DNA of 64,000 nt from an uncultured Candidatus Binatia bacterium (GCA_964291295.2 OZ219754.1:3264001-3328000), one strand, 5' to 3'. Shown: positions 42,948-58,513, counted from the stretch's first letter. Notes: a model not told the origin generated them from the sequence alone. Program-made: numbers and translations.

Positions 42948-43883
42948 CCGAGGAGAACGCGACCGCCGACGCGGACCGTTACCGGGAAGCACGGGGCGCC
43001 CCCGAGCCGGGCTCGGGAGCGTGGCATGCCGTGACCTGCATCCTGTGCCCGCGAATGACACGGATGCAGCATGGGACATGCCGGTGCGGCTGTCAAACAA
43101 GCTGCGACGGGAACCGTTCTTTATCGCGGCCGGCGGCGGTGCCGTCCTGGCCGCGCCTCCTTGAAGCCTGCGCCGCGGAAGATTCTCTTGGGGCAGAAAT
43201 CCACCAGAGTCCTTCTTGGCGCCCAGTTCGTGTCCAGCAAAGGGACAAGGCTGCACGTTTCCAGCATTCTGGACGAAAATCCGGACATGCTCTCCCACCC
43301 GCCATCTACCGGAGCGTCCTGCGGCGCAGACCCCTTGAAGCCGAAACCGGCACAGCGACAACGCAATCGGCTCCAGAACAGACCGCTGCAGGGCCGCAGA
43401 ACCTGCCTGCGTCGCCGTCCGCCGGACACAGACCTACCGGTAACGGTGGGATGAAGGATCAATGCTTCGCGCCTGCCGCGTCGTGAACCGCTGCAAGCCG
43501 CAGAACCGCCTGCCGACGTGCGAGGCTGATTGCCGGCGGCGCGATGGCCCGCTGCCTTTCCTCCCCTTCCTGCCACTCTTGCCATTCCTGCCATTCCACC
43601 CGTCGGCACGGCCGTCGGCCGGCAGGCTGCCTGGCTGAATCCGGACCTGCGACGCGCGTTTGATTCTTTGCTCCCGCTTGTGCAAGTTACCATCTGCAAT
43701 ACTCCGACCCCGCGGCTGCGGACGGGGTGCTGGAACGTCCGCGGGTCGGGATGCCGGATGGCTCGTCGTCACCGGTCCGGACCGCGTGCCGATGGCCTCC
43801 CGGACGTCCCGCACCCACATCCTGAACCTGCATACGGAATCACACGCGATGGGGACCGCGCGCGGTTTCGTCCGGGAGAGATC

Positions 43884-45374
43884 ATGAGCGAGATCCGATT
43901 CGTCGACACCACCCTGCGGGACGGCAACCAGAGCCTCTGGGCCCTCAACATGAAGACCGCGGCCATGGTGGAGGCCGCCGAGCAGATGGACCAGGCGGGC
44001 TTCGAGTCCATGGAGTTCTTCGTCACCAACATGTTCAAGAAGTACGTGCGGGAGCACAAGGAGAACCCGTGGGACTGGCTGCGGGAAGGCACCAAGCGGC
44101 TGCGCAACACCAAGCTGCGGCTTCACGGCGGCCTCAAGGGAGGGCTCGAGAAGAAGCCGTTGTCGATCCTGCAACTCATCATCCGCAAGGTGGTGGACAG
44201 CGGCATCACGCTGACGCGGACATCGAACTCCTGGAACGACTACGAGGTGTTCGGCGAGGAAGTGCAGGGACTGCGCAGCCTCGGCATGGACTGCGTCGTC
44301 AATCTGATCTATTCGGTGTCGCCCCGGCACACCGACGCCTACTACGCGCAGAAGGCCCGGGAGGCCGCCGCCCTCAAACCGGTTCGCATCTGCTTCAAGG
44401 ACGTGGGCGGGCTGCTCACTCCCGAGCGCACCCGCACGCTGGTGCCCATCGTGCTGGACAACATCGGCGACACCCCGGTGGAGTTCCACGCCCACTGCAA
44501 CAACGGCCTGGCACCACTCAACTACCTGGAAGCCATCAAGCTCGGCATGACCACGATCCACACCAGCGTGCCGCCGCTGGCCAACGGCTCGGCCCAGCCC
44601 TCGGTCTTCAACATGGCCCGGAACATCCGCGCCATGGGGCATGAGGTGCAGGTGGACGAGGAGGTGCTGAGGCCGGTGGAGGCACACTTCAACTATGTGG
44701 CCCGGCGCGACGGGCTCCCCATCGGCAAGCCGGTGGAGTACAACCACGCGCAGTACCTCCACCAGGTGCCCGGCGGCATGATCTCCAACTTCGTGCACCA
44801 GCTCCGCCTGGTAGGCATGGAGGACAAGCTGCCCGAGGCGCTGGAGGAAGCCGCCCGGGTGCGGGCCGAGTGGGGCTATCCCATCATGGTGACGCCGCTG
44901 TCCCAGTTCGTGGGCACCCAGGCCGCCTTCAACGTCATCCTGGGCCAACGCTACAAGCAGGTCAGCGACCAGTCCATCCAGTACGCCCTGGGCATCTGGG
45001 GCCGGGAGGGCGCCGAACTCATGGACCCGGACGTGAAGGACAGGATCCTGAGCCGCCCGCGCGCCAAGGCGTGGACCGAATGGGAACAGCCGGAACCGTC
45101 GCTCAAGGAGCTGCGCTCCCAGGTCGGCGCCGCCTCGGTATCCGACGAGGAGCTGGTGCTGCGGGTATACGCCGGCGTGGACGAGGTCAAGACCATGATG
45201 GAAGCCGGGCGGCCCAGGGAATACCTGAGCGCGCGCCAGCCGCTGGTGCGGCTCATCCACGAGTTGACCCGCCAGAACGAATACACCCAGGTGTACATTC
45301 GCAAGCCGGGGTTCTCCCTCGCGCTGGGGCGGAGCGACGATGGAGCGGCGAACGCGAATCGGGGAGAGTCATGA
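43884..45374 (+). CDS. Pyruvate carboxylase B / OadA-like carboxyltransferase lacking biotinyl domain, copy A
   Basis: DTTLRDGNQS, FKDVGG, HAHCNNG, HQVPGGM, GYPIMVTPLSQFVG; no AMKM motif. Confidence 0.88.
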   Translation: MSEIRFVDTTLRDGNQSLWALNMKTAAMVEAAEQMDQAGFESMEFFVTNMFKKYVREHKENPWDWLREGTKRLRNTKLRLHGGLKGGLEKKPLSILQLIIRKVVDSGITLTRTSNSWNDYEVFGEEVQGLRSLGMDCVVNLIYSVSPRHTDAYYAQKAREAAALKPVRICFKDVGGLLTPERTRTLVPIVLDNIGDTPVEFHAHCNNGLAPLNYLEAIKLGMTTIHTSVPPLANGSAQPSVFNMARNIRAMGHEVQVDEEVLRPVEAHFNYVARRDGLPIGKPVEYNHAQYLHQVPGGMISNFVHQLRLVGMEDKLPEALEEAARVRAEWGYPIMVTPLSQFVGTQAAFNVILGQRYKQVSDQSIQYALGIWGREGAELMDPDVKDRILSRPRAKAWTEWEQPEPSLKELRSQVGAASVSDEELVLRVYAGVDEVKTMMEAGRPREYLSARQPLVRLIHELTRQNEYTQVYIRKPGFSLALGRSDDGAANANRGES

Positions 45375-46834
45375 GCGACGTCACATTCGTGGACACCACG
45401 CTGCGGGACGGCAACCAGAGCCTGTGGGCCTACAACATGAAGACCGCGGCCATGCTGGATGCCATCGAGCGCATGGACCAGGCGGGCTTCGAGTCCATGG
45501 AGTTCTTCAGCGCCACCATGATCAAGAAGTACGTGCGCGAGCACCGGGAGAACCCGTGGCACTGGCTGCGCGAAGGCGCCCGGCGCGCACGCAGGACGCC
45601 GCTCCGGCTGCACGGGAGCATCCGCGGCGGGCTCGAGAAAAAGCCCACCTCGGTGGCCCGGCTGTTCATCCGGCACGTGGTGGACAGCGGAATCACGCTG
45701 ACGCGCAACTCCAACCCCTGGAACGACTACGAGGTGTTCCGGCACGACGTGGACGAACTGCGCGAACTCGGCATGGACACCATCGTCAATCTGATCTACT
45801 CGGTGTCGCCCCGGCACACCGACGCCTACTACGCGCAGAAGGCCCGGGAGGCTGCCGCCCTCAAACCGGTTCGCATCTGCTTCAAGGACGTGGGCGGGCT
45901 GCTCACTCCCGAGCGCACCCGCACGCTGGTGCCCATCGTGCTGGACAACATCGGCGACACCCCGGTGGAGTTCCACGCCCACTGCAACAACGGCCTGGCA
46001 CCACTCAACTACCTGGAAGCCATCAAGCTCGGCATGACCACGATCCACACCAGCGTGCCGCCGCTGGCCAACGGCTCGGCCCAGCCCTCGGTCTTCAACA
46101 TGCTCAGGAATGTGCGCGCGGTGGGCCATGCGGTGTCGGTGGACGAGGAGGCGCTCCGGCCGGTGGAGGCGCACTTCAACTATGTGGCCCGGCGCGACCG
46201 GCTGCCGGTGGGAGCCCCCTCCACCTACGACCAGTCCGTTTACAGCCACCAGGTGCCCGGCGGCATGATCTCCAACTTCGTGCACCAGCTCCGTCTGGTG
46301 GGCATGGAGGACAGGCTGCCCGAGGCGCTGGAGGAAGCCGCCCGGGTGCGGGCCGAGTGGGGCTATCCCATCATGGTGACGCCGCTGTCCCAGTTCGTGG
46401 GCACCCAGGCCGCTTTCAACATCATCCTGGGCCAACGCTACCAGCAGGTCAGCGACCAGTCCATCCAGTACGCCCTGGGCATCTGGGGCCGGCAGGGCGC
46501 CGAGTACATGGACCCCGACGTGAAAGACAGGATCCTGAGCCGCCCCCGCGCCAAGGCATGGGAGAACTGGAAGCAACCGGAGCCGTCACTCAAGGAGGTC
46601 CGGGCGCAACTCGGCGGCCCCTCACTGTCGGACGAAGAGATGGTGATGCGGGTCTACGCCGGGGATGAAGCCGTGGAGGCGCTGCACAACGCCGGCCGCC
46701 CCCGGGAGTACCTGAGCGCGCGCCAGCCGCTGGTGCGGCTCATCAACGAACTGACGCGGCAGAACGAATACACCCAAGTGTACATCCGCAAGCCGGAGTT
46801 CTCCCTGAGCCTGGGGCGAAACGCCGGCGGCTGA
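45371..46834 (+). CDS. Carboxyltransferase paralog, copy B
   Basis: Same motifs; ATGA overlap with copy A; offset 1487 bp. Confidence 0.88.
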   Translation: MSDVTFVDTTLRDGNQSLWAYNMKTAAMLDAIERMDQAGFESMEFFSATMIKKYVREHRENPWHWLREGARRARRTPLRLHGSIRGGLEKKPTSVARLFIRHVVDSGITLTRNSNPWNDYEVFRHDVDELRELGMDTIVNLIYSVSPRHTDAYYAQKAREAAALKPVRICFKDVGGLLTPERTRTLVPIVLDNIGDTPVEFHAHCNNGLAPLNYLEAIKLGMTTIHTSVPPLANGSAQPSVFNMLRNVRAVGHAVSVDEEALRPVEAHFNYVARRDRLPVGAPSTYDQSVYSHQVPGGMISNFVHQLRLVGMEDRLPEALEEAARVRAEWGYPIMVTPLSQFVGTQAAFNIILGQRYQQVSDQSIQYALGIWGRQGAEYMDPDVKDRILSRPRAKAWENWKQPEPSLKEVRAQLGGPSLSDEEMVMRVYAGDEAVEALHNAGRPREYLSARQPLVRLINELTRQNEYTQVYIRKPEFSLSLGRNAGG

Positions 46835-46879
46835 ATCCGGTCCCGGGTGGCGGCGCTGCGGTGCCAATGCCGCCGCGGC

Positions 46880-49879
46880 TCAAGGCGCCGTCCCCTGCTC
46901 CAATGCCAGATTGAAGACGGTGTCGCTCATCCAGCGCCTGAAGCCGTCGTTGTCCATGAACTGCTTGAACAACCGGCTGTCGTCCTTCATCACCGAAGTC
47001 ATCACCCTCTGCAGAACCCTTTCGAATTCGATGCGCAGATTATCACTGTCCGAGTGCCGCCGGGCATTCCGGAAGGCGGTATCCGCCTTCACCTTCGCAG
47101 GAATGGTCTCGGTGACGAATTGCCTCACGCGGTCCGCGTCCTCCCACGGGATGTTCCCGAAGTGGTCGTTGAAATCCCTGATGATGTTCGAGAGCCGATC
47201 CAGCTCCGGCTCGCTCCCTCCGCCGCCCGCACCGGCGGTCGCCGGGTCCACCTCGGCCTCCTCGTCGGGCAGCATGATCTTGCGCACCGCCTGCTTCTCG
47301 ACCCGATAGCTGTCCATGTCGATGGTGTCCAGAATGCCCCTGGACAGGTCATCCTCGCGCGGGGACGGCAGCCTGGGAATCAGGAAGTTGAGGAAGATCG
47401 ACCGCATTTCCCAGCCGGCCCGGGTATAGGGCAGCAGGCAGGAAAGGAAAGCGTAGGCCCGGACGAACCGCCTGGCCTTGCCCTTGAACTCCACCTGCCC
47501 ATCTTCGTCGAGGTCGCGCACATAGACCGCGACGCATCCGTCGAGAATCGGGTCGAGCCGGTCCCGTCCGGCACCGTCCAGGTAGAGCCGCGCGAAGTCT
47601 TCGACCTGGCCCGGCGCATAGACCTGAGCGCGGTCCAGATCCGCCTGCAGGTCATGAAGTCTGTTCGGGTCGGTCTCGTCGGACAGGATCGTGGCGCGAT
47701 AGAAGTCTGCGAAGGCATCGCGCATGGCGTCGGCGTCGTTCAGGAAGTCCAGCACGAAGACATCGTGCTTTTTCGGATGCGCCCGGTTGAGGCGCGAGAG
47801 TGTCTGAACCGCCTGGATGCCGGACAGCGTCTTGTCCACGTACATCGTGTGCAACAGCGGCTCGTCGTAGCCGGTCTGGAACTTGTCCGCGCAGACGAGG
47901 AACCGGTAAGGGTCCTCCCGGATCTTCTCGGCAATCCGGGTGCCCGGAAAACCGTTCAGCGACGCTTCGCTGACCTTCGCACCGCCGAATTCATGCTCAC
48001 CGGAGAAAGCCACCATGGCCCGATACGGGCTCTTTCGTTCGTTCAGATAGTCACGGATGGCGCGATGGTACTGGATCGCGCGTTCGATGCCGTTGGTGAC
48101 CACCATGGCCCGCGCTTCACCGCCGATCCGATTGCGGGCGAGAACCTGTTCGTGGAAGTGGTCCACCATGATCTCGGCCTTGAGGCGGATGGCGTGGCCG
48201 TGCCCCTCGACGAAGCGCCGCAGCTTCGTCCGGGCCTTCTTCGTATCGAACTCCGGGTCGTCCTCGACGGTCTTGGCGAGTTTGTAGTAACTGGCCACCG
48301 GCGTGTAGTGCGCCAGCACGTCCAGGATGAAGCCCTCCTGGATCGCCTGTTTCATGGTGTAGCTGTGGAAGGCGCGGCGCCGGGTCGTGCCGTGCGGGTC
48401 CGGCTCGCCGAACAACTCCAGCGTCCTGTTCTTGGGCGTGGCGGTGAATGCGAAGTAGCTGGCGTTGGAAAGCAGCTTGCGCGATTCCATCAACCGGTTG
48501 ATTTGGTCCTCGAAGGTCGCGTCCTGCTCCCCCGCGCTCGCCTCGGAAAGCACCTGCCCGAGGGCCGCGCTGGTACGACCGCCCTGGCTGGAATGGGCCT
48601 CGTCGATGACGATGGCGAAACGCCGCCCGCGCTGCGCGTCGCCGATCTCGTCGAGGATGTAGGGAAACTTCTGCACCGTCGAGATGATGATCTTCCTGCC
48701 CGACTCGATGAAACGCCGCAGATCGCCCGATGCGTTGGCATGGCCGACGGTGGCCCCGACCTGGGCGTACTGCCGGATGGTGTCGTTGATCTGCCGGTCG
48801 AGAATGCGCCGGTCGGTGACCACGATGATGGAATCGAAGATGGCGGCGCCGTCCCGGGAGAGGTCGATCAACTGGTGCGCCAGCCAGGCAATGGAGTTGC
48901 TCTTGCCGCTGCCGGCGGAGTGCTGGATCAGGTAGCGTCGGCCCACGCCGTTCGCGGCAGCGTCCGCCAACAGCCGGCGGACCACATCAAGCTGATGATA
49001 GCGGGGCCAGACCTGGGTTCGTACTTTACGGCCCGTCTTCTCGTCCTTCGTCTCCACCCGCTGGGCGTAGTTCTCCAGGATATGGGTCAGATTCTCGGGG
49101 GTGAGAACCTCGCGCCACAGGTAGTCGGTCTTGATTCCATCCGGGTTCGGCGGGTTGCCGGCACCGTCGTTCCAGCCCCGGTTGAAGGGAAGGAACCACG
49201 ATGCCTTGCCCCTGAGGTGGGTGCAGAAGCGCACCTCGGCCTCGTCCACGGCGAAGTGGGCAGCGCAGCGCCCCAAGTCGAACAGCGTCTCGCGCGGGTT
49301 GCGGTCCCTCTTGTACTGCTCCACCGCGTCGTCCACCGTCTGCCGAGTGAGGTTGTTCTTGAGCTCGAAGGTAATGACCGGCAGCCCGTTGACGAAGAGC
49401 ACGAGGTCCAGCGCCCGCTGGGTCTCGTCGCGGCTGTAACGAAGCTGCCGGGTGACCGTGAAGCGGTTCGACGCGAAGCGCTCCTGCGCCCGATGGTTGG
49501 CGGGGGAAGGCGTGCCATAGAAGAGGTCCAGATCGTGCGCGCCGTGCCTGAGTCCCTTGCGCAGCACCTCCATGGTGCCCCGCTTCGAGATCCGGTCCCT
49601 CAACCGCGCCAGAAACTTGCTTCGGGTCGGCCCGTCCTGGCCCAGCGCCAGCGCTGCGGCGGCTTGGGGTTGCGTGGTGCGCAAAAAAGCGGAGAGCTGG
49701 GCCAGATCAACGCAATATTCGCGTTCGTAGTCGCCATGGCTGCCGCAGATCCAGCCCGAACCGCCGTATTCCGACGGTGGTTCAGCCACCGTGTCCGCCG
49801 CGAGCGGGTCGCAGGCATGGCCCGTGAGCGCCGTGCAGATCAGCCCTTCGAGGCCGCGTTCGCTGGTGTCGGTGGTCAA
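46880..49879 (-). CDS. hsdR: Type I restriction endonuclease subunit R
   Basis: DLVLFVNGLPVITFELK nuclease motif, HSAGSGKS, DEAH, FTATPK, TGYDEP, QTLSRLNR. Confidence 0.95.
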   Translation of the reverse strand: MTTDTSERGLEGLICTALTGHACDPLAADTVAEPPSEYGGSGWICGSHGDYEREYCVDLAQLSAFLRTTQPQAAAALALGQDGPTRSKFLARLRDRISKRGTMEVLRKGLRHGAHDLDLFYGTPSPANHRAQERFASNRFTVTRQLRYSRDETQRALDLVLFVNGLPVITFELKNNLTRQTVDDAVEQYKRDRNPRETLFDLGRCAAHFAVDEAEVRFCTHLRGKASWFLPFNRGWNDGAGNPPNPDGIKTDYLWREVLTPENLTHILENYAQRVETKDEKTGRKVRTQVWPRYHQLDVVRRLLADAAANGVGRRYLIQHSAGSGKSNSIAWLAHQLIDLSRDGAAIFDSIIVVTDRRILDRQINDTIRQYAQVGATVGHANASGDLRRFIESGRKIIISTVQKFPYILDEIGDAQRGRRFAIVIDEAHSSQGGRTSAALGQVLSEASAGEQDATFEDQINRLMESRKLLSNASYFAFTATPKNRTLELFGEPDPHGTTRRRAFHSYTMKQAIQEGFILDVLAHYTPVASYYKLAKTVEDDPEFDTKKARTKLRRFVEGHGHAIRLKAEIMVDHFHEQVLARNRIGGEARAMVVTNGIERAIQYHRAIRDYLNERKSPYRAMVAFSGEHEFGGAKVSEASLNGFPGTRIAEKIREDPYRFLVCADKFQTGYDEPLLHTMYVDKTLSGIQAVQTLSRLNRAHPKKHDVFVLDFLNDADAMRDAFADFYRATILSDETDPNRLHDLQADLDRAQVYAPGQVEDFARLYLDGAGRDRLDPILDGCVAVYVRDLDEDGQVEFKGKARRFVRAYAFLSCLLPYTRAGWEMRSIFLNFLIPRLPSPREDDLSRGILDTIDMDSYRVEKQAVRKIMLPDEEAEVDPATAGAGGGGSEPELDRLSNIIRDFNDHFGNIPWEDADRVRQFVTETIPAKVKADTAFRNARRHSDSDNLRIEFERVLQRVMTSVMKDDSRLFKQFMDNDGFRRWMSDTVFNLALEQGTAP

Positions 49880-49896
49880 GATTTGGTGCCCGCTTC

Positions 49897-50214
49897 TCAG
49901 ATCGGGACCTCCCGCACCTGTCCTGGCAGCACCTCGTCAATCGCCGCGCGAATTTCTTCGGTTCGATGCTGTACCCGCGGCCACGGCGTAGCCATCAGCA
50001 CGACGACGGCCAGCCTTCTTCCGGTCAGATTCTGCTGATAACGCATGTTCCGGTCCGTGGTCACGATGACCTGATATCCTTCCTCTTCGGCTCTTCGGAT
50101 CAATTCCCCATTCTCCAGCAACTCCCATCCCCTCTCCGCAGACCTGTCCACCGAATGTTCTGACAAGTGCCTGCGAAGGGGTGCCGGAGTCCCGTGGTCG
50201 AAGAGAATTTTCAC
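49897..50214 (-). CDS. DUF5615/VapC45-like PIN toxin
   Basis: VKILFDHGTP...GW..LENGEL...VTTDRN.RYQQNL; GTGA overlap with the DUF433 stop. Confidence 0.8.
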   Translation of the reverse strand: MKILFDHGTPAPLRRHLSEHSVDRSAERGWELLENGELIRRAEEEGYQVIVTTDRNMRYQQNLTGRRLAVVVLMATPWPRVQHRTEEIRAAIDEVLPGQVREVPI

Positions 50215-51020
50215 GATTGCAGGGTCGTCCTGAGGGCCTCGGCTTCGTGCTTGAGCACAGCGGCCACCTGCCACGGTTTGACCTCGGGGTACCACTCCAG
50301 GAATTCGTTCACGGTGGCACCGCTCTCGAGACTCTCGAAAAGAGCATAAACCGGCACCCGGGTTCCCGTGAAGGCCCAAGCCCCACTGATCTTGCGGGGA
50401 TTCCGTTCCACCGCAGCACAGGTTGTCCAGTTCGTCATCTCTGTGACCTCCTCTTGGTTCGCGTCACCCTCTACAGATTCATCCAGGACAGGGGTGGGCA
50501 TTCCTGATTCCTGCGGCAAGACGCTGGCAGCTTCGCGGCCGCGCGGCCCCCTCTCCGCCTCCGGTGCGCCGCCTGGCTCGAAAACGACGACATCCAGGTT
50601 ATCGAAGCCACGAAAGGTTTCCTCGATGCGCGGGCGCACGTCGCACCATTCCAGTCCGCCCAGGCCGCAACCCAGCGGCGGTACCGCAATCGAACGTATC
50701 CCGCGTTCGCGTATCACTGTCGCAAGGTCATCCAACCCGGCCTGGATGTCTTCGATCCTGCTCTTGTCCCGCCAATGCCGCTTGGTCGGGAAGTTGACGA
50801 TGAAGCGGGGATTGGCGAGGAGGCGCGTTTCGAAAACGAACATGCGGCCGGGCCGGACCCCTCCCCCCTTGCAGGCCTCGGCATACGCGCGGAAATCCTC
50901 GGGAAACGCCTTCTTGAACTGAAGCGCAAGCCCGCGTCCCATCACCCCCACGCAGTTGACCGTGTTGACCAGGGCCTCGGCATCCTGGGCGAGGATGTTA
51001 CCGGCTTTGAAGTGAATCAT
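50211..51020 (-). CDS. DarG-type macrodomain fused in frame to a DUF433 (VapB45-like) antitoxin
   Basis: ALVNTVNCVGVMGRGLALQFKKAFP, NFPTKRHWR, PPLGCGLGGL; C-terminal GAWAFTGTRVPV..LFE.L..G with its own GAGGAGG RBS and ATG at 50438. Confidence 0.82.
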   Translation of the reverse strand: MIHFKAGNILAQDAEALVNTVNCVGVMGRGLALQFKKAFPEDFRAYAEACKGGGVRPGRMFVFETRLLANPRFIVNFPTKRHWRDKSRIEDIQAGLDDLATVIRERGIRSIAVPPLGCGLGGLEWCDVRPRIEETFRGFDNLDVVVFEPGGAPEAERGPRGREAASVLPQESGMPTPVLDESVEGDANQEEVTEMTNWTTCAAVERNPRKISGAWAFTGTRVPVYALFESLESGATVNEFLEWYPEVKPWQVAAVLKHEAEALRTTLQS

Positions 51021-51043
51021 CGGTGCCCTCTTCGTGTCACCTT

Positions 51044-51107
51044 GATAATACCACTTCGACTGAGGCACGACAGTGGGCCGTTGAGCAGCGGGCGGTGTCA
51101 TGGTCAA
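51044..51107 (-). pseudogene. Probable C-terminal remnant of darT
   Basis: RPTVVPQSKWYY directly upstream of the darG macrodomain, resembling DarT C-termini as recalled. Confidence 0.45.
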
Positions 51108-51124
51108 CCCACCGCCTCCGCCGA

Positions 51125-51832
51125 TCAGTCCCCGGGACCGAATGCCGGCTCGTCGTCGGAATCGGGACGATCACCCGTTCCGCCAGCGGCAGCCAGAGGA
51201 TCGATTTCCGGCAGAGAGGTCGCTGCTTGGCGCACATCCAGCTTGCCGGTCACGACATCGGCGATCAGACGGGTGCGGTACTCGCGGAGCAGGTCGATCT
51301 CGCTTTGCGCTTGAGCGATGCCCGCCTGGATCTTCTCGACCATGTGGTCGAGAAAGCGGGCGATGGCGGTCTGCTCAATGGAGGAAGGGATGGGAACAAG
51401 CCGCCGATAGGCTTCCTCTCGAGCAAGACCTGGAATCGCAGAGTCGTTGTTTACCGCATCAAGGCGTAGACAACCGAGCACGTAATACAACCAGAGAATA
51501 TGCGCAGGTGAAAATCGCTTGTCGACAAAAAACGTCGTGTCGATCGCGAAAACACATACGGGAGAATAGTGTACTTTACCAAATGAACCCTTTCGACCGA
51601 CGATTATACAAGGAGCCTCTGTGTTTGCCACCTGGTGTAAACCGACACGGCCATTTGAACCGAAAACTGGAGTGTTTCCAACACGACGTACTTCGGTAGA
51701 GAGAGAATCACCGTACTCCATTCGGCAAATCTGCTTCAGTCGCCTTACCTCCCAATGCACCGGCACCTCTCCCAGCCACTCGACCCCGGAGTCCTTGTAA
51801 CGTGGATATGGTTTGAGTTCGGCGGCCATCAC
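51125..51832 (-). CDS. hsdS: Half-size Type I specificity subunit (single TRD)
   Basis: YKDSGVEWLGEVP.HW, one low-GC TRD, P..EQ.AI..FLD, LIADVVTGKLDV; only 235 aa. Confidence 0.88.
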   Translation of the reverse strand: MMAAELKPYPRYKDSGVEWLGEVPVHWEVRRLKQICRMEYGDSLSTEVRRVGNTPVFGSNGRVGLHQVANTEAPCIIVGRKGSFGKVHYSPVCVFAIDTTFFVDKRFSPAHILWLYYVLGCLRLDAVNNDSAIPGLAREEAYRRLVPIPSSIEQTAIARFLDHMVEKIQAGIAQAQSEIDLLREYRTRLIADVVTGKLDVRQAATSLPEIDPLAAAGGTGDRPDSDDEPAFGPGD

Positions 51833-51833
51833 A

Positions 51834-52075
51834 TCAGCCGAAAAGGGTGTCGCGCACTGTCTGCCTTGGCAAATGGAGGAAGTCCGCCGTGTCGGCGACG
51901 ATCGCGTTCAGGGTTCCGACCCGCACGTCCCGATGTCGCGGCACGGTCACTTGATGCCTCCCGCCGTCGGCGGCACCGTCATGTGGCTGCCTCGGCTCCG
52001 AGTCAAGCGACGGCCGTGGTGAGGGGCAAACCGCCGGGCGACTTCGGTGGCCGAGAGGTCGCGGGGCAGTTTCAT
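51834..52075 (-). pseudogene. hicA: HicA-family toxin, frameshifted
   Basis: MKLPRDLS...RSRGSHM in one frame and HQVTVPRHRDVRVGTLNAIVADTADFL...LFG* in the next; 242 nt long. Confidence 0.8.
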
Positions 52076-52314
52076 GCCGCGATGGCCTCTTCCCGGACGA
52101 GATGCAGCCGGATCACGCGCGGCGCCTTGTCTTCATCGAAGTGGCAGGGCACGGCGTCTCTCGCCATCTCCTTCAGATCGTCCCAGTCCTCTCCCTGCGT
52201 GTGGATGCCGTATCCGGGCGCCTTGGCGTCGTACCCGCCTTCGACCGCTTCTGTGACCTCGAAAATGATTTCCGCTGGCCGCACCTGCGACACCGTGCTT
52301 GGATTTTCATTCAT
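52072..52314 (-). CDS. HicB-like antitoxin (short form)
   Basis: EIIFEVTEAVEGGY.A...GIHTQGEDWDDLKEMARDAV.CHF; ATGA overlap with hicA. Confidence 0.75.
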   Translation of the reverse strand: MNENPSTVSQVRPAEIIFEVTEAVEGGYDAKAPGYGIHTQGEDWDDLKEMARDAVPCHFDEDKAPRVIRLHLVREEAIAA

Positions 52315-52378
52315 TGTTCGCCTCATCCGCCCTTGTCTTCTTGTCGCCAAAGTCGGTCCGGCACGGCCGCCACGCGGC

Positions 52379-52999
52379 TCACTTCACGGGGAACCACTCC
52401 TGCAATGTACAGCGCAGCCTTTGGAAGGACCGATCCTTGCAGCCTTTGAGCGACACCCGTTCGGCGATCTGCTGGTACAGCGACGTGCTACGAGGAATCC
52501 CCGCTGCGTGCAACGCCGCATGGAATGCCTCTTTGGGACACGGGGACTTCAAGGCACCCGCAGACATCCAGCCATTTTCGACCAGCCAGTCACGCAGCGG
52601 CGGCTTCCTGCCCGACCAGCCGGCCACTTTGGCCACATGGGGAGAATCTGACCAGACCCAGGCCTCGAGTTCGGGGTCCACGACGACGGTTCGAGCCCGT
52701 TCACCCCAAAGGGAACTGGCGAAGCGTTGATCCATCTCGCGCTGGAGTTCTTCCGGGGCGGTTGTCTCGCGCCCGCTGCCTTGATGGTCGAATAGCAGCA
52801 GACCGTGGCGGTACTGCTTGACGAAGTCGGACAGGAACGATAACCCCTCACGCACGCACGCCGGATCGTGCTGCGGATGGACATGGATGTCATGCGCGAT
52901 TGGCCGGATACCCATCGCCCGCGGTCTCGATAACAGTCCCTTCAGCGCGTGCTGCATGTCCTTGTCGGCCACCAGCACGACCAAGTCCTTTTCGGTCAC
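52379..52999 (-). CDS. Toprim-like partner protein (Mad4-like)
   Basis: DLVVLVAD, HDP, LFDHQGSG, DPELEAWVW, PKE; GTGA overlap with the ATPase. Confidence 0.7.
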   Translation of the reverse strand: MTEKDLVVLVADKDMQHALKGLLSRPRAMGIRPIAHDIHVHPQHDPACVREGLSFLSDFVKQYRHGLLLFDHQGSGRETTAPEELQREMDQRFASSLWGERARTVVVDPELEAWVWSDSPHVAKVAGWSGRKPPLRDWLVENGWMSAGALKSPCPKEAFHAALHAAGIPRSTSLYQQIAERVSLKGCKDRSFQRLRCTLQEWFPVK

Positions 53000-54252
53000 C
53001 CCAACACTCCGGATGCCAGCAGCGTGCCGAGGTCGACGTCCTGCTGCCACTCTCGAAGCCGCGGGTGTTCGGAGCCGGGAACGATGTCGGTCGCGCCCTG
53101 GTCATCCTTCGCGAAGCAAAGCACCTCATCTCCGCTCGCGGCGTTCAACACCAACGGCGAGTGGGTCGCCAGCAGTACCTGGGCCGTGTACATGGAACGG
53201 AGGGAGTCGTAGACGGTGGCCACGGCACCGGGGTGAATCCCGTTCTCCGGCTCCTCTATCAGGTAGATCCCGCTCAGATCGGCAAGATACGCGGGCAGCG
53301 TGAGCGCCGTCAGTCGGAGTGTGCCGTCCGAGACAAGCCACGACGGAACCTTCAGGCGTCCGGCATATTCGTAGATCATGTAGCAGTGCCGGTCCTCCGG
53401 ACGTTCGATGGTCCTGATGTCCTCCAGGTCGGGAAGCGCCGTTTGCAAGTGCTTGATCCACGCCGCATGACGTCTTGGATCGCGCTTCCGAAGGCGAGCC
53501 ACGACCCAGGAGAGATTGGAGCCGTCCGGCAGGAACCCGGCGGCGCGCGTCGGCGGACTCGGGCGGCGGATCGCGCGGCTGTTGAGCATCAACCGCTGGA
53601 TGCGCGAATTGAGGTATTCGCGAAACCAGGTCGCTATTGAGAACGAATCTTCGTCCGCCGGGAGATTGCGCAACGCCGATCTCTTCGGCCCAAGCTTGAA
53701 AGATGGCGCCCAACTCCGGTCCGACGGTTTGGAATCGTTGTAGAAGTTGTCGTTACCTCCTTTGACCTTGTTGACCAAAACCTTGCGGTCCGACAGTCTG
53801 GTGCTTTCCTGAAGCGATGCCGGCGCTGCCGGAACCTGGGGAAAAAGCTCGCGCTGCTCCGCCGCGCGCACACCGGCCTTCTTCAAAAGCAGCGTCTCGG
53901 CCTTGAACTCGAACTGGCGCTCGGTGTCGTCGAAACCGATCTCCACCTGATACCGCACCGTATCCAGCTCCGGCTTCATCGACCGCTCGCGGAGATGGTC
54001 CGGCACCGTGGCCTCGACGGCCAGTTCCAGGCCGCTCCCGCAGCCACGGAACAACAGGTTGAGCGGATCCGAAGCGCGGTCTTCCAGGGCCTGTTCCAGG
54101 CCGTTCGATACGATGTCGCCGAGGAAGCCGATGACATCCAGGAAAGTCGTCTTGCCCGAAGCATTGGGGCCGACCAGGACGTGGAAAGGCTTCAGGGGCC
54201 GCGCCACATACTGCAGGCAGCGGTAGTTCAACGCTTCCACCAACGTGATCAC
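52996..54252 (-). CDS. ABC/AAA_21 ATPase (Mad3-like)
   Basis: GPNASGKT, signature VSDGT, LIEEPENGIHP, ATHSP. Confidence 0.85.
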   Translation of the reverse strand: MITLVEALNYRCLQYVARPLKPFHVLVGPNASGKTTFLDVIGFLGDIVSNGLEQALEDRASDPLNLLFRGCGSGLELAVEATVPDHLRERSMKPELDTVRYQVEIGFDDTERQFEFKAETLLLKKAGVRAAEQRELFPQVPAAPASLQESTRLSDRKVLVNKVKGGNDNFYNDSKPSDRSWAPSFKLGPKRSALRNLPADEDSFSIATWFREYLNSRIQRLMLNSRAIRRPSPPTRAAGFLPDGSNLSWVVARLRKRDPRRHAAWIKHLQTALPDLEDIRTIERPEDRHCYMIYEYAGRLKVPSWLVSDGTLRLTALTLPAYLADLSGIYLIEEPENGIHPGAVATVYDSLRSMYTAQVLLATHSPLVLNAASGDEVLCFAKDDQGATDIVPGSEHPRLREWQQDVDLGTLLASGVLG

Positions 54253-54284
54253 CGCCGCTCCCCATCGGGCGATCCCGCGTCCGG

Positions 54285-54412
54285 AATGTAGTGCAACAGG
54301 TCCTCCGTCTCCCCCTCGATCGCCAGAATATCTGTGCGAATGTCCTTCAGGGGTCGCTTCGGCTGTGGCCTGTAGAAGTACCGGTTGAGGCTGCCCTCGT
54401 AGCCGACTTGCC
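54285..54412 (-). repeat. Relict duplicate of the hsdM 3' end
   Basis: Encodes QVGYEGSLNRYFYRPQPKRPLKDIRTDILAIEGETEDLL; 54360-54406 matches 55178-55224 at 42/47 nt. Confidence 0.85.
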
Positions 54413-54438
54413 GTGTGCTCCCTGGAGAAACCCGCGTA

Positions 54439-54627
54439 TCACTGCCTGGAGCGTTCCGCTTCCATGGCCGTCAGGCGCTGCCGGAGCGGGGCGCTTTCAC
54501 GATATCTTCGCCAGTACTCATCGAATTCCTTGCCGCCCAGGTGTTTCGTTTCCTCGTAAACCCTCCTGCGAGCTTCGCGCATGAACTCGACGCAGTCGAA
54601 CTTGTCGGGCGCCTTACTCGTCATCAT
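54439..54627 (-). CDS. Small PIN-associated protein, putative antitoxin
   Basis: KFDCVEFMREARRRVYEETK; about 62 aa; AAGGAG RBS; overlaps the end of the PIN domain. Confidence 0.7.
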   Translation of the reverse strand: MMTSKAPDKFDCVEFMREARRRVYEETKHLGGKEFDEYWRRYRESAPLRQRLTAMEAERSRQ

Positions 54628-57064
54628 TGATCTCCTTCGGCGTTCGGATGTCGATTGCCGGGTAACCGAGTCTCCGGTTGACGCCATTGTACGCCCGGAT
54701 ACGCCCCCAACTCACCATCTGCTTGAAATTCCAGCTTGCAATGACATCAACCTCGCCGATGCTGGCGATGGCCACATGCAACGCAACGTTGTAGTTTGCC
54801 GGAGCCACGACTCCGGCTGCGATATAGGCCTCCGCAAGCTTGCGGGCCGGTTCGGATTCCCGAACCGTTTCAAAGTGGGCTTCCGGTATGTGTTCGATGA
54901 CAGCACGCACGCCAGGCGGTGCGTTTTCCAGATTCTTTCGAGTCACTTCCGAGAAGACCAGCGTTGCCTCGCCGCTGCGGAAGCCATCGAACAGGCGACG
55001 TGATGCTTCGCGGAACTCGTCGTCTTCACAACCGCCGATCACGGATGTATCCGCATAGATCCGGGGTTTCGCAGTGTATTCCGTTCCCGGTTCGCGCACC
55101 ATGAAGTCGGGAAGCAAGCTCTCGAAGTCAGCCTGGAGCTGGAGGATATCGGTTCGAATCTCGCCCAGCGTACGCAACGGCTGCGGCTTGTAGAAGTACC
55201 GGTTGAAGCTGATCTCGTAGCCGATCTTCACACTGTCATGCCGGTACCAGGCATCGGGTGCCCAGGGCAGCACTTCGCGTCGCAGGAAGGCTTCGAGGCC
55301 GCCCGCCTCCTGCAACGGAATCTGCTCGGTGTCGCGCAGGCCGGTGTCCGGCTCGTATTCGACCACGGCGGACCGGCGGTTCAGGGTCGTCGCGAACAGG
55401 CCGCGCAGCGGGTTGGCCTCCGTGCCACGCTTGTGGACCTTCCGGATGACCGCCGGTGCGTCCTCGCTCCGCCGGCCGTTCTCTTTCAACTCCTTGATCT
55501 CGGAAGCCTGGTAGACGCGGTTCGGATCGGCGCCCACGATCCGCAGCGGCCGCTCCACCGCCACCTTCCGATAGCCGAAGGCGGCGTTGTCGAAGATCCT
55601 GCTCTGCGCGCTCTCCTCGAAGGCGAGGAAGGTGCCGCAGATGCGCCTGATATCGTCCTCGCCGAGCTCACAGTTCTTCTTGCCGAGGTTCTTGCGCAGC
55701 GGCCGGTGCCAGCCGGTGGCATCGATCAATTGCACCTTGCCGCGCCGATGTTCCGGCTTGCGGTTGGTCAGCATCCAGACATAGGTGGCGATGCCGGTAT
55801 TGTAGAACAGGTTGAGCGGCAGGGCGACGATGGCTTCGAGCCAGTCGTTCTCGATGATCCAGCGGCGGATGTTGCTCTCGCCCTGGCCGGCATCTCCGGT
55901 GAACAGCGAACTGCCGTTGTGCACCTCGGCGATGCGGCTGCCGAGCGGGGTGTTCCGCTTCATCTTCGACAGCATGTTCGCGAGGAACAGCATCTGCCCG
56001 TCGCTGGAGCGCGTGGCCAGAGAGTACTCCGGATCGCCGTCATGCTCGATCAGGAACCGTGGATCGCGCAGGCTCTTCCTGCCGCCCATGCGCTCCATGT
56101 CCGTCTTCCAGCTCTTGCCGTAGGGCGGATTGGACAGCATGAAGTCGAACTCGCGGGCCGGGAAGGCGTCGTTGGCCAAGGTGGAATGCACCGGGCCGCC
56201 GACGATGTTGTCGGCGGCTTCGCCCTCGCCCTTGAGCAGCAGGTCGGCCTTGCAGATGGCGCAGGTCTCGGCGTTGATCTCCTGGCCGTACAGGTGCGTG
56301 GAGACCTGCTTGCCGCGCTCGGCGGCAAGCTCCCGCAAGGTCTCCTCGGCCACCGTCAGCATGCCGCCCGTGCCGCAGGCGCCGTCATAGAGCAGCCAGG
56401 TTCCGGATTCGATCCGGTCGGCGACGGGCAGGAACACGAGCCTGGCCATCAGGCGCACGGCGTCTCTCGGGGTCCAGTGCTCGCCCGCCTCTTCGTTGTT
56501 CTCCTCGTTGAACCGGCGCACCAGCTCTTCGAAGATCGTGCCCATGCCGTGGTTGTCCAGGCCGGGATGACGAACGGCGCCCGCGGTATCCATTACCGGG
56601 GCCGGGCTCAGATTGACTTCAGCCGAGGTCAGTTTCTCGATCAACGCGCCGAGGGCGTCGGCACGGGCGAGACGCGGGATCTGGTTGCGAAACTCGAAGC
56701 TGTCGAGGATGGCCTGCACGTTGGGCGAGAACCCGTCGAGCCAGGCTTCGAAATCGGCCCTGAGTTGCTGCGAACTGGAGCGGGCGCGCAGGCCGCGCAG
56801 GGTGAACGGCGAGGCATTGTAGAACGCCTGACCCGCGGCCTGGCGCAGCGCGGCATCCTGTTCGACCACGCCCGCCGCATCAAGCGAGTCCTTCATGTCG
56901 AGCACGGCCCGCTTGCCGTCTTCCAGCACCGCGTCCAGCCGCCGCAGCACGGTCATGGGCAGGGTCACGTCGCGGTATTTGCCGCGCACGTAGAGATCCC
57001 GCAGCACGTCGTCCGCGATGCCCCAGATGTAGTTCGCAATCCAGTTGAGGTCGCCGTTGCCCAT
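54614..57064 (-). CDS. hsdM: Type I m6A methyltransferase HsdM with C-terminal PIN-domain fusion
   Basis: IWGIADDVLRD, EAGEHWTPR, DGACGTGG, NPPY, GYEISFNRYFY; then RIYADTSVIGG...SWNFK...IRTP. Confidence 0.92.
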   Translation of the reverse strand: MGNGDLNWIANYIWGIADDVLRDLYVRGKYRDVTLPMTVLRRLDAVLEDGKRAVLDMKDSLDAAGVVEQDAALRQAAGQAFYNASPFTLRGLRARSSSQQLRADFEAWLDGFSPNVQAILDSFEFRNQIPRLARADALGALIEKLTSAEVNLSPAPVMDTAGAVRHPGLDNHGMGTIFEELVRRFNEENNEEAGEHWTPRDAVRLMARLVFLPVADRIESGTWLLYDGACGTGGMLTVAEETLRELAAERGKQVSTHLYGQEINAETCAICKADLLLKGEGEAADNIVGGPVHSTLANDAFPAREFDFMLSNPPYGKSWKTDMERMGGRKSLRDPRFLIEHDGDPEYSLATRSSDGQMLFLANMLSKMKRNTPLGSRIAEVHNGSSLFTGDAGQGESNIRRWIIENDWLEAIVALPLNLFYNTGIATYVWMLTNRKPEHRRGKVQLIDATGWHRPLRKNLGKKNCELGEDDIRRICGTFLAFEESAQSRIFDNAAFGYRKVAVERPLRIVGADPNRVYQASEIKELKENGRRSEDAPAVIRKVHKRGTEANPLRGLFATTLNRRSAVVEYEPDTGLRDTEQIPLQEAGGLEAFLRREVLPWAPDAWYRHDSVKIGYEISFNRYFYKPQPLRTLGEIRTDILQLQADFESLLPDFMVREPGTEYTAKPRIYADTSVIGGCEDDEFREASRRLFDGFRSGEATLVFSEVTRKNLENAPPGVRAVIEHIPEAHFETVRESEPARKLAEAYIAAGVVAPANYNVALHVAIASIGEVDVIASWNFKQMVSWGRIRAYNGVNRRLGYPAIDIRTPKEINDDE

Positions 57065-57223
57065 CTCGCATCCAGTCCGTGGTCTCGTGTTCGGCCTGCG
57101 GGGCGGCGGCCATCCCCGGGCCTCCCTCTCCTGGAAGCACGATCCCGCCTCGTACCGGAGCCGGCGCGCCGTCTTCATCCGGAACCCGCACCGCACGCGC
57201 CGCCCGGCAAGCCGGCGGCCCGG

Positions 57224-58513
57224 TCAGCGTTTCGTGTCGGCGATTTCCAGCGCGGCGAAGGCGTACATCCGGGCGGCGGCCTCGAGGTCGTCCACCTTCT
57301 GCATCTCGCCGGTGGCCGGCTTGGCGTCGGCGGCCTCCGGCGAGGGGCCGCACTTGATGGCGGGAATGCCCACTTCCGCGAACACCGTCAGGTCGGCGTA
57401 GGTGCTGGTGAAGGCGTCCCGGATCGGTTCCACCTTGCGTCCCCGCACGTATTCGTGCGCCTCTTCCATGGCGGCCACCAGCGGCTCCGCACCCTTGGAC
57501 TCGTACCCGTTGACGGACAGGAACAGCGAACACGCGGCCTCGATGGCGGTGTCCGCCACCACCGCCTTCACCTCCCGCAGCACGTCGATGGCGCGCTGTT
57601 CCGGGGTCATGAACGCCTCCACATAGAGGTTGCAGATGGCCGGCGAGAAATTGGGCTTGAACGGCGCACCGCCGAAGATGGAGCCGATGTTGACCTTCGG
57701 AACCATCGTGGCGGCGGCGAACTCGTAGCGGTGCTCCCGCTCGTAGCGCCGCGCCCAGTCTTCCAGGGCCGGAATGATGGAGGCCATGCGCACCACCGCG
57801 TTCCTGCTCTCCCGGGCATCCACCGGATGGTCCACGAACGGCCCGTACATCGGCTCGCCAAAGGTGGTGATCTTGATGAACACCGCGCCGCACTGCGCCC
57901 AGGTGATGCGGAACTGGGACGGCTCCACCACGATGCAATAGTCGCCCACGACCCCGTGGGTGACCAGGTAACGCGCGCCGTGGCCCTTTCCCCGGTAGGC
58001 CGGACCCTGGTAGTGGTCCACCGGCGCCCGGCCGATCTCCCCCGCCACCCCCGTGACGATGACGTCGCCCTTGAGCCGGACCCCGCTCTCCTTCAGCGCC
58101 TTGGCCATGGCCAGGGTGCAGGCGAGCGGCCCCTTGTCGTTGACGATGCCGCTGCCGTAGATGACCTCGCCGTCACGCCGGGCCAGCGCCTGCCACTCCG
58201 GGCGGGTGCCGCCGGTGATCCACAGATCCTCCGGGGTTCCGGCCAAGGCCGTGTCCATGTGCCCGTTGAACAGCAGCGTCGGTCCCTCGCCGGTGCCGGG
58301 GAGGACGCCCACCACATTGGCCCGGCCCGGCTCGGTGTGCTGCAGGAACGTCTCGATGCCCTGTTCCCGCAGCCAACCGTGGATGAACCGCGCCACCTCC
58401 TCTTCGCTGCCCGTGGGCGTGGGGATGCTGACCACGTCCATGGCCAGCCGGGCCAGCTCCTCCCGGTCGATGTGGGAAAAGACCTTTTCCAGGGTCGCCT
58501 GATCGGTTTGCAT
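57224..58513 (-). CDS. M20/ArgE-DapE family metallohydrolase with atypical motifs
   Basis: NGHMDT, G.G..NDKG, VAGEI, VVEPS. Confidence 0.8.
   Translation of the reverse strand: MQTDQATLEKVFSHIDREELARLAMDVVSIPTPTGSEEEVARFIHGWLREQGIETFLQHTEPGRANVVGVLPGTGEGPTLLFNGHMDTALAGTPEDLWITGGTRPEWQALARRDGEVIYGSGIVNDKGPLACTLAMAKALKESGVRLKGDVIVTGVAGEIGRAPVDHYQGPAYRGKGHGARYLVTHGVVGDYCIVVEPSQFRITWAQCGAVFIKITTFGEPMYGPFVDHPVDARESRNAVVRMASIIPALEDWARRYEREHRYEFAAATMVPKVNIGSIFGGAPFKPNFSPAICNLYVEAFMTPEQRAIDVLREVKAVVADTAIEAACSLFLSVNGYESKGAEPLVAAMEEAHEYVRGRKVEPIRDAFTSTYADLTVFAEVGIPAIKCGPSPEAADAKPATGEMQKVDDLEAAARMYAFAALEIADTKR

Follow-up and report, generated by a model that had tools for sequence, protein, structure and literature searches.

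We analysed a 64,000-nt stretch of DNA from an uncultured Candidatus Binatia bacterium (GCA_964291295.2 OZ219754.1:3264001-3328000), hereafter the window, in which a 10.2-kb Type I restriction-modification (R-M) operon (46880-57064; positions are 1-based in the window) carries defence and toxin-antitoxin (TA) genes between its hsd genes. The region has about 65% G+C and, as a result, long spurious open reading frames (ORFs) on both strands; the real genes were assigned to the minus strand by Pfam, PADLOC and NCBIfam scans. A reading of the window from its sequence alone (the sequence-only reading) had described co-oriented, often overlapping units, and the database matches and coordinates bear out its gene order item by item. 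From 57064 to 46880, the units follow each other as listed:

57064..54614, minus strand: hsdM::PIN, the whole ORF, 816 aa with no stop between its parts
55103..57064, minus strand: hsdM methyltransferase part, aa 1-654 (Pfam N6_Mtase 162.7 bits, HsdM_N 65.3 bits; PADLOC MTase_I 754.9 bits)
54614..55102, minus strand: PIN-like domain fused in frame to HsdM, aa 655-816, 162 aa (AlphaFold2 (AF2) fold and Foldseek)
54439..54627, minus strand: small partner gene, putative antitoxin, 62 aa (GAAGGAG Shine-Dalgarno; overlaps the hsdM::PIN stop)
54249..54410, minus strand: relict hsdM 3' end, a non-functional fragment of about 160 nt (translation GYEGSLNRYFYRPQP...EDLL matches the HsdM tail of the family)
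52996..54252, minus strand: ABC-type ATPase, MAD3 / HEC-01A homologue, 418 aa (NCBIfam NF047739 483.6 bits, cut-off 420; PADLOC HEC-01A 145.3 bits; Pfam AAA_21)
52379..52999, minus strand: Toprim-like nuclease partner, MAD4 / HEC-01B homologue, 206 aa (NCBIfam NF047734 214.7 bits, cut-off 160, full length 1-206)
52072..52326, minus strand: HicB-like antitoxin gene, 84 aa (homology to ORFs preceding hicA)
51834..52075, minus strand: hicA pseudogene (7-nt deletion just 3' of window position 51958; two frames needed)
51125..51829, minus strand: half-size hsdS, 234 aa, with one target recognition domain (TRD) and one conserved helix region (one Pfam Methylase_S domain)
51040..51100, minus strand: darT remnant, the last ~13 codons (QRPTVVPQSKWYY just upstream of darG)
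50211..51020, minus strand: chimeric DarG macrodomain (aa 1-~167)::DUF433 (NCBIfam DarG 265.3 bits, about 1-166 of 338; Pfam Macro 84.5 bits, DUF433 45-47 bits)
49897..50214, minus strand: DUF5615 (PIN_10-like) putative toxin, 105 aa (Pfam DUF5615 27.7 bits, cut-off 23.8)
46880..49879, minus strand: hsdR, 999 aa (Pfam HSDR_N, SWI2_SNF2, ResIII, T1R_D3-like; PADLOC REase_I)

How complete is the R-M system that carries these genes? As expected of Type I subunits, HsdM has an N6-adenine methyltransferase domain with the catalytic NPPY motif (at aa 312) and a DGACGTGG motif, and HsdR joins an N-terminal nuclease to a superfamily 2 (SF2) translocase with GSGKS, DEAH and FELK motifs (58-79% identical to related operons). 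HsdS has one TRD instead of the two of a Type I specificity subunit. Its 234 aa compare with a median of 474 aa in the family; in alignments it covers one half of the full-length homologues, and it matched the PADLOC Specificity_I models over half their length. A half-size HsdS would have to act as a dimer, reading a symmetric site. Judged by its sequence, the R-M core looks intact except for this one-TRD HsdS.

Neighbouring units overlap by 4 nt or 14 nt at four junctions, and the biggest gaps are 187, 104 and 52 nt. Because the genes are so tightly packed or overlapping, they would probably be co-transcribed from a promoter upstream of hsdM. A scan of 46500-57600 returned two promoter-like sites (1.3 expected) and two terminator-like sites (7.4 expected).

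Cargo at the two hsd junctions

We scanned species-representative genomes with hsdM::PIN as the query, which gave 561 hsdM relatives, and used the best 80 loci (L numbers) as comparators. The window hsdM is 62-86% identical to these 80 loci, which come from many phyla, and the operon thus appears to be horizontally mobile. Complete related operons, defined as loci with hsdM and hsdR on one strand, numbered 58; 52 carry cargo besides hsdS between hsdM and hsdR, and 6 have hsdS alone. The distance from hsdM to hsdR ranges from 1352 to 9655 bp (median 3771) and is 4735 bp in the window. Where hsdS could be called (57 operons), the hsdM/hsdS junction is occupied in 41, the hsdS/hsdR junction in 43, both in 33 and neither in 6, and empty junctions are 4-nt overlaps. 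This is the cassette array with cargo turnover at the same junctions that the sequence-only reading had proposed.

The non-hsdS ORFs of the related operons (202, in 129 clusters) are diverse. Their representatives include GmrSD, Schlafen/AlbA_2, DarT, Macro, HicA, PIN, DUF5615, DUF433, HTH-M78, YhcG and AAA_21, and further Fic, Mrr, TIR/SLOG/ThsB, SIR2+HerA, HEPN/MNT, HigB, KwaB, DUF2290+UvrD, C5-methylase+Vsr and transposase. The modules of the window recur at matching places among the 80 loci: hicB after hsdM in 10, DUF5615 before hsdR in 10, a Macro domain between hsdS and hsdR in 7 and PIN at the hsdM end in 9. A recurring link of cargo to hsd operons, also foreseen from the sequence, is thus found for the PIN fusion, hicBA, darTG and DUF433-DUF5615. 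With about 7 cargo ORFs against a median of 3, and with five loci carrying 7-12, the window has a cargo load in the upper range that is not exceptional.

The array had also been called unusual, a description that fits neither the 52 of 58 related operons with cargo nor the literature. Payne et al. (bioRxiv 10.1101/2024.01.29.577857) describe defence genes genetically embedded in the operons of Type I R-M, BREX, DISARM and Hma systems, with PrrC as an example embedded almost exclusively in Type I systems; in the window, cargo is nested between hsd genes as well, but as a stack of several cassettes, of which most have decayed and two have fused to neighbours. TgvAB has been published inside a Vibrio Type I operon. 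DarTG was reported between hsdS and hsdR by Jankevicius et al. 2016 (PMC5179494), and again in the RRDM island of enteropathogenic Escherichia coli (PMC12255303), where the site is called a potential recombination hot spot and the island protects against phage. The window shares this hsdS/hsdR position but keeps only ~13 codons of darT and only the macrodomain of DarG, joined to DUF433, and no RptR-like regulator gene was seen upstream of its hsdM. Finally, Matelska et al. 2017 (PMC5499597) describe PIN-like TA genes, including DUF433-PIN_10, transcriptionally coupled to Type I R-M. PIN-type and DUF433/PIN_10-type modules lie inside hsd operons here as well; in that account they are neighbouring genes, with no HsdM::PIN translational fusion.

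Is the operon native to its present site? In the window, 10.4 kb separate the flanking M20 peptidase and carboxylase genes. In all of the same-genus genomes examined (8 of 8), the distance between the two genes is 0.15-2.9 kb and contains no hsd gene. Thus, the operon was inserted between them. No tRNA was found in 38000-64000, and no flanking direct repeats marking an integration site were found. About half of 24 same-genus genomes have hsdR relatives (69-81% identity) at other chromosomal places, three of them as fragments only. In the operons that we fetched, DUF433-DUF5615 lies ahead of hsdR in four genomes of the same genus and one of the same order, and macro or darTG takes that place in three; two same-genus operons lack any window cargo module, one fetched operon is ended by a contig end and two are wrecks. 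The hsdS/hsdR junction of the window therefore combines two alternative occupants, macro/darTG and DUF433-DUF5615. Leftovers of cargo are also found, with a hicB stump kept in genome G020 and a macro stump in G025.

Three further observations concern the chromosomal surroundings. At the same site in G012, one of the eight same-genus genomes (L132, G012:C1:4817200-4831500, 3452-3870), DUF433 and a DUF5615 truncated to residues 1-57 stand without hsd genes, and this fragment may be the stump of a lost hsd operon. The genome of the window has a second hsdR of a different lineage (39% identity, G000:C1:63913-66837). Next to the operon, at 43530-46834 on the plus strand, two carboxylase ORFs (PYC_OADA, HMGL-like) stand in tandem and, taken at their greatest length, overlap by ~500 nt; in same-genus genomes, three or four such copies stand in tandem.

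Several cassettes of the window are broken, hicBA among them. The hicB-like gene has no HMM match; its identity to ORFs located at the end of hsdM in 10 of the 80 loci is 48-83%, and an intact or near-intact hicA follows such an ORF in L016, L018, L028 and L034. In the window, hicA shows a 7-nt gap against the intact 82-aa hicA of L016, L018 and L028, and matches Pfam HicA_toxin (PF07927) below the cut-off, in its second half only (E 6e-4). The pair thus lacks the intact HicA that would stand beside HicB in a HicAB system. Another internally deleted hicA was seen in L058 (12466-12786), downstream of a fused HsdM::PIN, where a hicA start (MKLPRD) is joined to a hicA end (AIIAQVAAFLG).

At the hsdS/hsdR junction, the DarT ADP-ribosyltransferase is gone except for a 13-residue C-terminal stump: QRPTVVPQSKWYY matches the DarT C-termini HRPMVTVEPGWYY, HQPSVSVKPDWYY and NPRVEIRSDWYY at the same position in L084 and L088. 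Intact darT-darG pairs (Pfam DarT and Macro) occupy this junction in L029, L084 and L088. A search for DarT (PF14487) elsewhere in the window's own genome gave no match, and the control genomes of that search were silent as well. The macrodomain is 81% identical to P0151 over residues 1-167, and the C-terminal DarT-binding half of DarG is replaced by DUF433, which from residue 195 is a complete antitoxin with its own Met. We considered whether macro::DUF433 is a recurrent architecture and rejected this, as DUF433 is absent from all of the best 120 of 8000 scored relatives. The chimera is best read, from its sequence, as a local event of deletion and read-through.

DUF433 and DUF5615 are both above cut-off (47.2 and 27.7 bits) and adjacent, overlapping by GTGA, as in a DUF433/DUF5615 TA pair. 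DUF5615 is 52-89% identical to copies before hsdR in 10 of the 80 loci, most of them abutting hsdR, and 59-78% identical to full-length copies in the four same-genus operons and the same-order operon. This predicted TA pair looks intact in the window.

Taken together, three of the four toxins (PIN, see below, HicA and DarT) appear inactivated or lost while their antitoxin-like partners persist. Such a pattern would be expected if the cargo consisted of selfish addiction modules that stabilise a mobile hsd operon after transfer and decay toxin first once the operon is fixed. In the window, PIN and its partner, HicA/HicB and DarT/DarG all combine loss of the toxin with a retained antitoxin, and leftovers elsewhere are of the same kind (the partner gene in L027, the hicB stump in G020, the macro stump in G025 and the DUF433-DUF5615 stump at the same site in G012); the idea of a stabiliser of the operon is in print for DarTG (Jankevicius et al., PMC5179494). 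However, many cargo types are known defence genes and not TA pairs (GmrSD, TIR, SIR2-HerA, Schlafen-like), and the DarTG of the Type I operon in PMC12255303 belongs to a phage-protective island. We regard pure addiction as possible but doubtful; it overlaps with, and does not exclude, the passenger reading set out below.

The HsdM::PIN fusion and the MAD3-MAD4 pair

The C-terminal domain of hsdM::PIN has no Pfam match, and its profile found no significant match among PDB sequences. We built an AF2 model on 50 family sequences (pLDDT 93.2) and found that its best Foldseek matches are the VapC toxins 6ifc_A and 5ecd_A (E 1e-4; TM 0.54-0.65). Thus, the domain is predicted to have a PIN fold. Its family comprises 2542 representatives, the majority stand-alone proteins of 150-160 aa. 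In the family alignment, four acidic residues (D18, E57, D106 and D119, domain numbering) are conserved in at least 90% of the 50 sequences; the window reads D18, N57, V106 and D119, so that two of the four catalytic acids of a VapC-type toxin are replaced. Moreover, where VapC has an upstream DNA-binding VapB, the partner here is downstream, 62 aa long and outside any Pfam family.

The fusion itself is widespread. The PIN part is matched by 140 protein clusters (448-1428 aa), nearly all with N6_Mtase and HsdM_N and a length of 810-900 aa, and true fused HsdM::PIN ORFs of 812-819 aa occur in six related loci. Among 108 listed fused homologues with a length of 700 aa or more, all four acids are present in 104, and the window copy is the sole one without two of them. 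This recurrence indicates that the HsdM::PIN fusion is not an accident of the window genome. We found no description of it in the literature, where the fusion papers that we met concern HsdM-HsdS, though the supplements of Payne et al. and Matelska et al. could list it.

The small partner gene contains a family motif, FDCV.F.REAR.R, that is conserved in seven cargo ORFs of related loci. It follows PIN in L015, L019, L025 and L081 and forms one chain with PIN in L032 and L067, which suggests a functional link between the two. In L027 (11995-12216), the partner comes directly after hsdM with no PIN, an antitoxin-like gene kept after toxin loss. Read-through also joins hsdS and DUF433, as one 540-aa ORF in L010 (7809-9440). 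Together with hsdM::PIN, macro::DUF433 and PIN::partner (L032, L067), this ORF suggests frequent stop-codon loss between 4-nt-overlapping genes in the lineage.

The next cassette is a MAD3-MAD4 pair. MAD3 carries a Walker A motif (GPNASGKTT), LIEEPE and ATHSP, and overlaps MAD4 by 4 nt (GTGA). The adjacent genes match both HEC-01A and HEC-01B, the latter weakly: in PADLOC, MAD4 scores 26 bits with mad4 and 18 bits with HEC-01B (E 4.6e-4). Against PDB sequences, MAD3 gave weak matches to OLD and PtuA only and MAD4 gave none. We read the pair as a split OLD-like ATPase/Toprim nuclease that looks intact in the window.

Two published systems offer a comparison for this pair. HEC-01, whose models the window ATPase/Toprim pair matches, is embedded in Hma systems and alone gave no defence in the assay of Payne et al. 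The Pseudomonas aeruginosa MAD3-MAD4 (PMC13662399; bioRxiv 10.1101/2023.03.30.534895) forms a 2:2 ATPase/Toprim complex with DNA-cutting activity in vitro, and MADS defence depends on both genes; the published MAD4 residues are D12, D55, D81, E83, E119, E121 and K164, and in the authors' model MAD6, MAD7 and MAD8 are mandatory. As in MADS, MAD3 and MAD4 of the window pass the NCBIfam equivalog cut-offs and follow a Type I-like methylase gene. In contrast to MADS, the window has a classical HsdR and its hsdM scores 35 bits against a MAD2 cut-off of 720. An NCBIfam scan of 12 operon sequences found no MAD6-8 in the operon; only MAD3 and MAD4 were above cut-off, and hsdR matched hsdR models only. 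Full membership of MADS was rejected on the missing MAD6-8 and the low hsdM score.

Relatives of the pair occur in varied settings, which argues that it is an autonomous cassette. Above-cut-off relatives stand alone in L093, L125, L121, L126 and L127, come after an MmeI/PglX-like methylase in L094/L095, where a DrmD-like helicase gene lies upstream, and follow a methylase-Fic-helicase set in L124. The notion that MAD3-MAD4 always follows a methylase gene was rejected, because five relatives are solo and the L124 pair follows the helicase gene. In L121 (G273:C118:1-3332), the pair lies between ORFs with AIR carboxylase (purE) domains, as if inserted in or beside purE.

What joined MAD3-MAD4 to this operon? 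The relict hsdM tail and the live tail at 55132-55224 form a 93-nt direct repeat with 76% identity, whose homology begins exactly at the GYE motif. The TGA of the relict tail overlaps the GTG start of MAD3, and it is thus the relict and not the live tail that is coupled to the MAD3 start. Of 85 sequences with a tail match, the window and L081 alone have the tail in duplicate, and a degenerate tail lies at the same place in L089-L091 (MAD3 72% identical). L091, a further decayed contig, reads partner, relict tail, MAD3, MAD4, hicB, hicA and hsdR pieces. Since the order is the same, the joint of partner, hsdM tail and MAD3-MAD4 appears old and inherited as a block. In L091 (11251-12330; also L090, 1780-2166), MAD4 residues 1-57 run into hsdR residues 692-994, a deletion fusion, and L091 has a second hsdR C-terminal fragment at 16885-17440. 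The sequence-only reading had taken gene ends for recombination landing sites. The relict hsdM and darT ends are real, but such duplicated ends are rare; on their sequences, gene ends appear to serve as crossover points and not as a regular landing pad.

Alternatively, the mosaic could be an artefact, a chimera assembled from several metagenomic hsd operons with the frameshift and fusions arising from sequencing errors. The metagenome runs are rich in related hsd operons (hundreds of contigs at 85-95% likeness), and mis-joins are conceivable. However, critical joints (50786-53349, 51238-52106 and 54106-55211) are bridged gap-free, with 0-4 differing letters, by short-read contigs of two metagenome runs that belong to a single study, and the contigs reproduce the 7-nt hicA deletion with 0 gaps; one of the runs may be the source sample, and the contigs are therefore not independent support. 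In addition, the order partner, relict tail, MAD3, MAD4, hicBA is repeated at 72% identity in L091, an unrelated contig, and HsdM::PIN occurs in 140 clusters. An assembly chimera, which the sequence-only reading had named as a threat to its own proposal, is extremely unlikely.

Passengers or sensors of the R-M complex

We think it likely that the locus is one horizontally mobile Type I R-M operon, of a lineage with an HsdM of ~650 aa and an HsdR of ~1000 aa, whose hsdM/hsdS and hsdS/hsdR junctions routinely take up passenger defence and TA cassettes, and that the window copy is a decaying mosaic. This copy would have been built by successive recombination, read-through fusion and deletion. The modules would act, or would once have acted, as independent passengers, abortive-infection or addiction modules that may stabilise the operon, and probably not as sensors of the R-M complex.

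The sequence-only reading had gone further and proposed a layered immune system, in which TA and nuclease modules expressed together with the Hsd complex serve as backup effectors, keep watch on it in the manner of PrrC and fire when a phage blocks restriction. PrrC/EcoprrI and RloC are guards embedded in Type I loci (PMC12707154), PrrC and PARIS are published guards of R-M, and the window resembles PrrC/RloC loci in that its Type I operon contains the gene of an ABC-type ATPase effector. Its genes are co-oriented and overlapping, PIN is covalently joined to HsdM in 140 clusters with the tetrad kept in 104 of the 108 listed, MAD3 starts on the stop codon of an hsdM tail, and in MADS the gene numbers of mad2 (a methylase), mad3 and mad4 run on without a break. 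Several features of the locus stand against this: (i) with two catalytic acids replaced in the window PIN, a frameshift in hicA and darT missing, two effectors at most could fire, and monitoring is left without support because most effectors are broken; (ii) MAD3-MAD4 relatives also stand alone, in five contexts, and no close pair was found in the 80 related operons, where three ATPase matches of 25-29% identity were the only ones; (iii) cargo identity varies between operons, which fits passengers better than dedicated sensors; and (iv) the effector differs from PrrC/RloC in being a separate Toprim protein and not an anticodon-nuclease domain, and the window ATPase matched 114 PADLOC families, of which the best 25 include neither PrrC nor RloC. 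We therefore consider a layered system very unlikely.

Some points nevertheless weigh against the passenger reading. Tight translational coupling and the recurrent 12-22 nt spacing of DUF433-DUF5615-hsdR would also fit a functional link, and MAD3-MAD4, being required for defence in MADS, can work within a methylation-based system. The fusion frequency among comparators may be inflated, as one of the six search peptides lay in PIN, and the cargo counts are approximate, coming from simple ORF calling in high-GC DNA.

Taken as a single case, the locus contributes little to a pattern already on record, in which Type I operons enclose defence and TA cargo. It does show clearly how cargo is gained, how it fuses and how it erodes toxin first, and a second contig keeps the same order in a more decayed state. 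The best lead from the locus is HsdM::PIN, a widespread fusion that we did not find described in the literature. It may define an R-M-tethered effector not described before, with a competent PIN nuclease carried on the methyltransferase subunit and restrained by the small downstream partner, so that damage to or inhibition of M2S, or loss of a labile partner, would unleash an abortive-infection nuclease; we regard this as quite unlikely. In a weaker variant, drawn by analogy with MADS, MAD3-MAD4 may provide the Type I M/S module with a second nuclease arm. Because the fusion recurs and its catalytic residues are kept, physical coupling of a toxin to an R-M enzyme is directly testable in an intact homologue.

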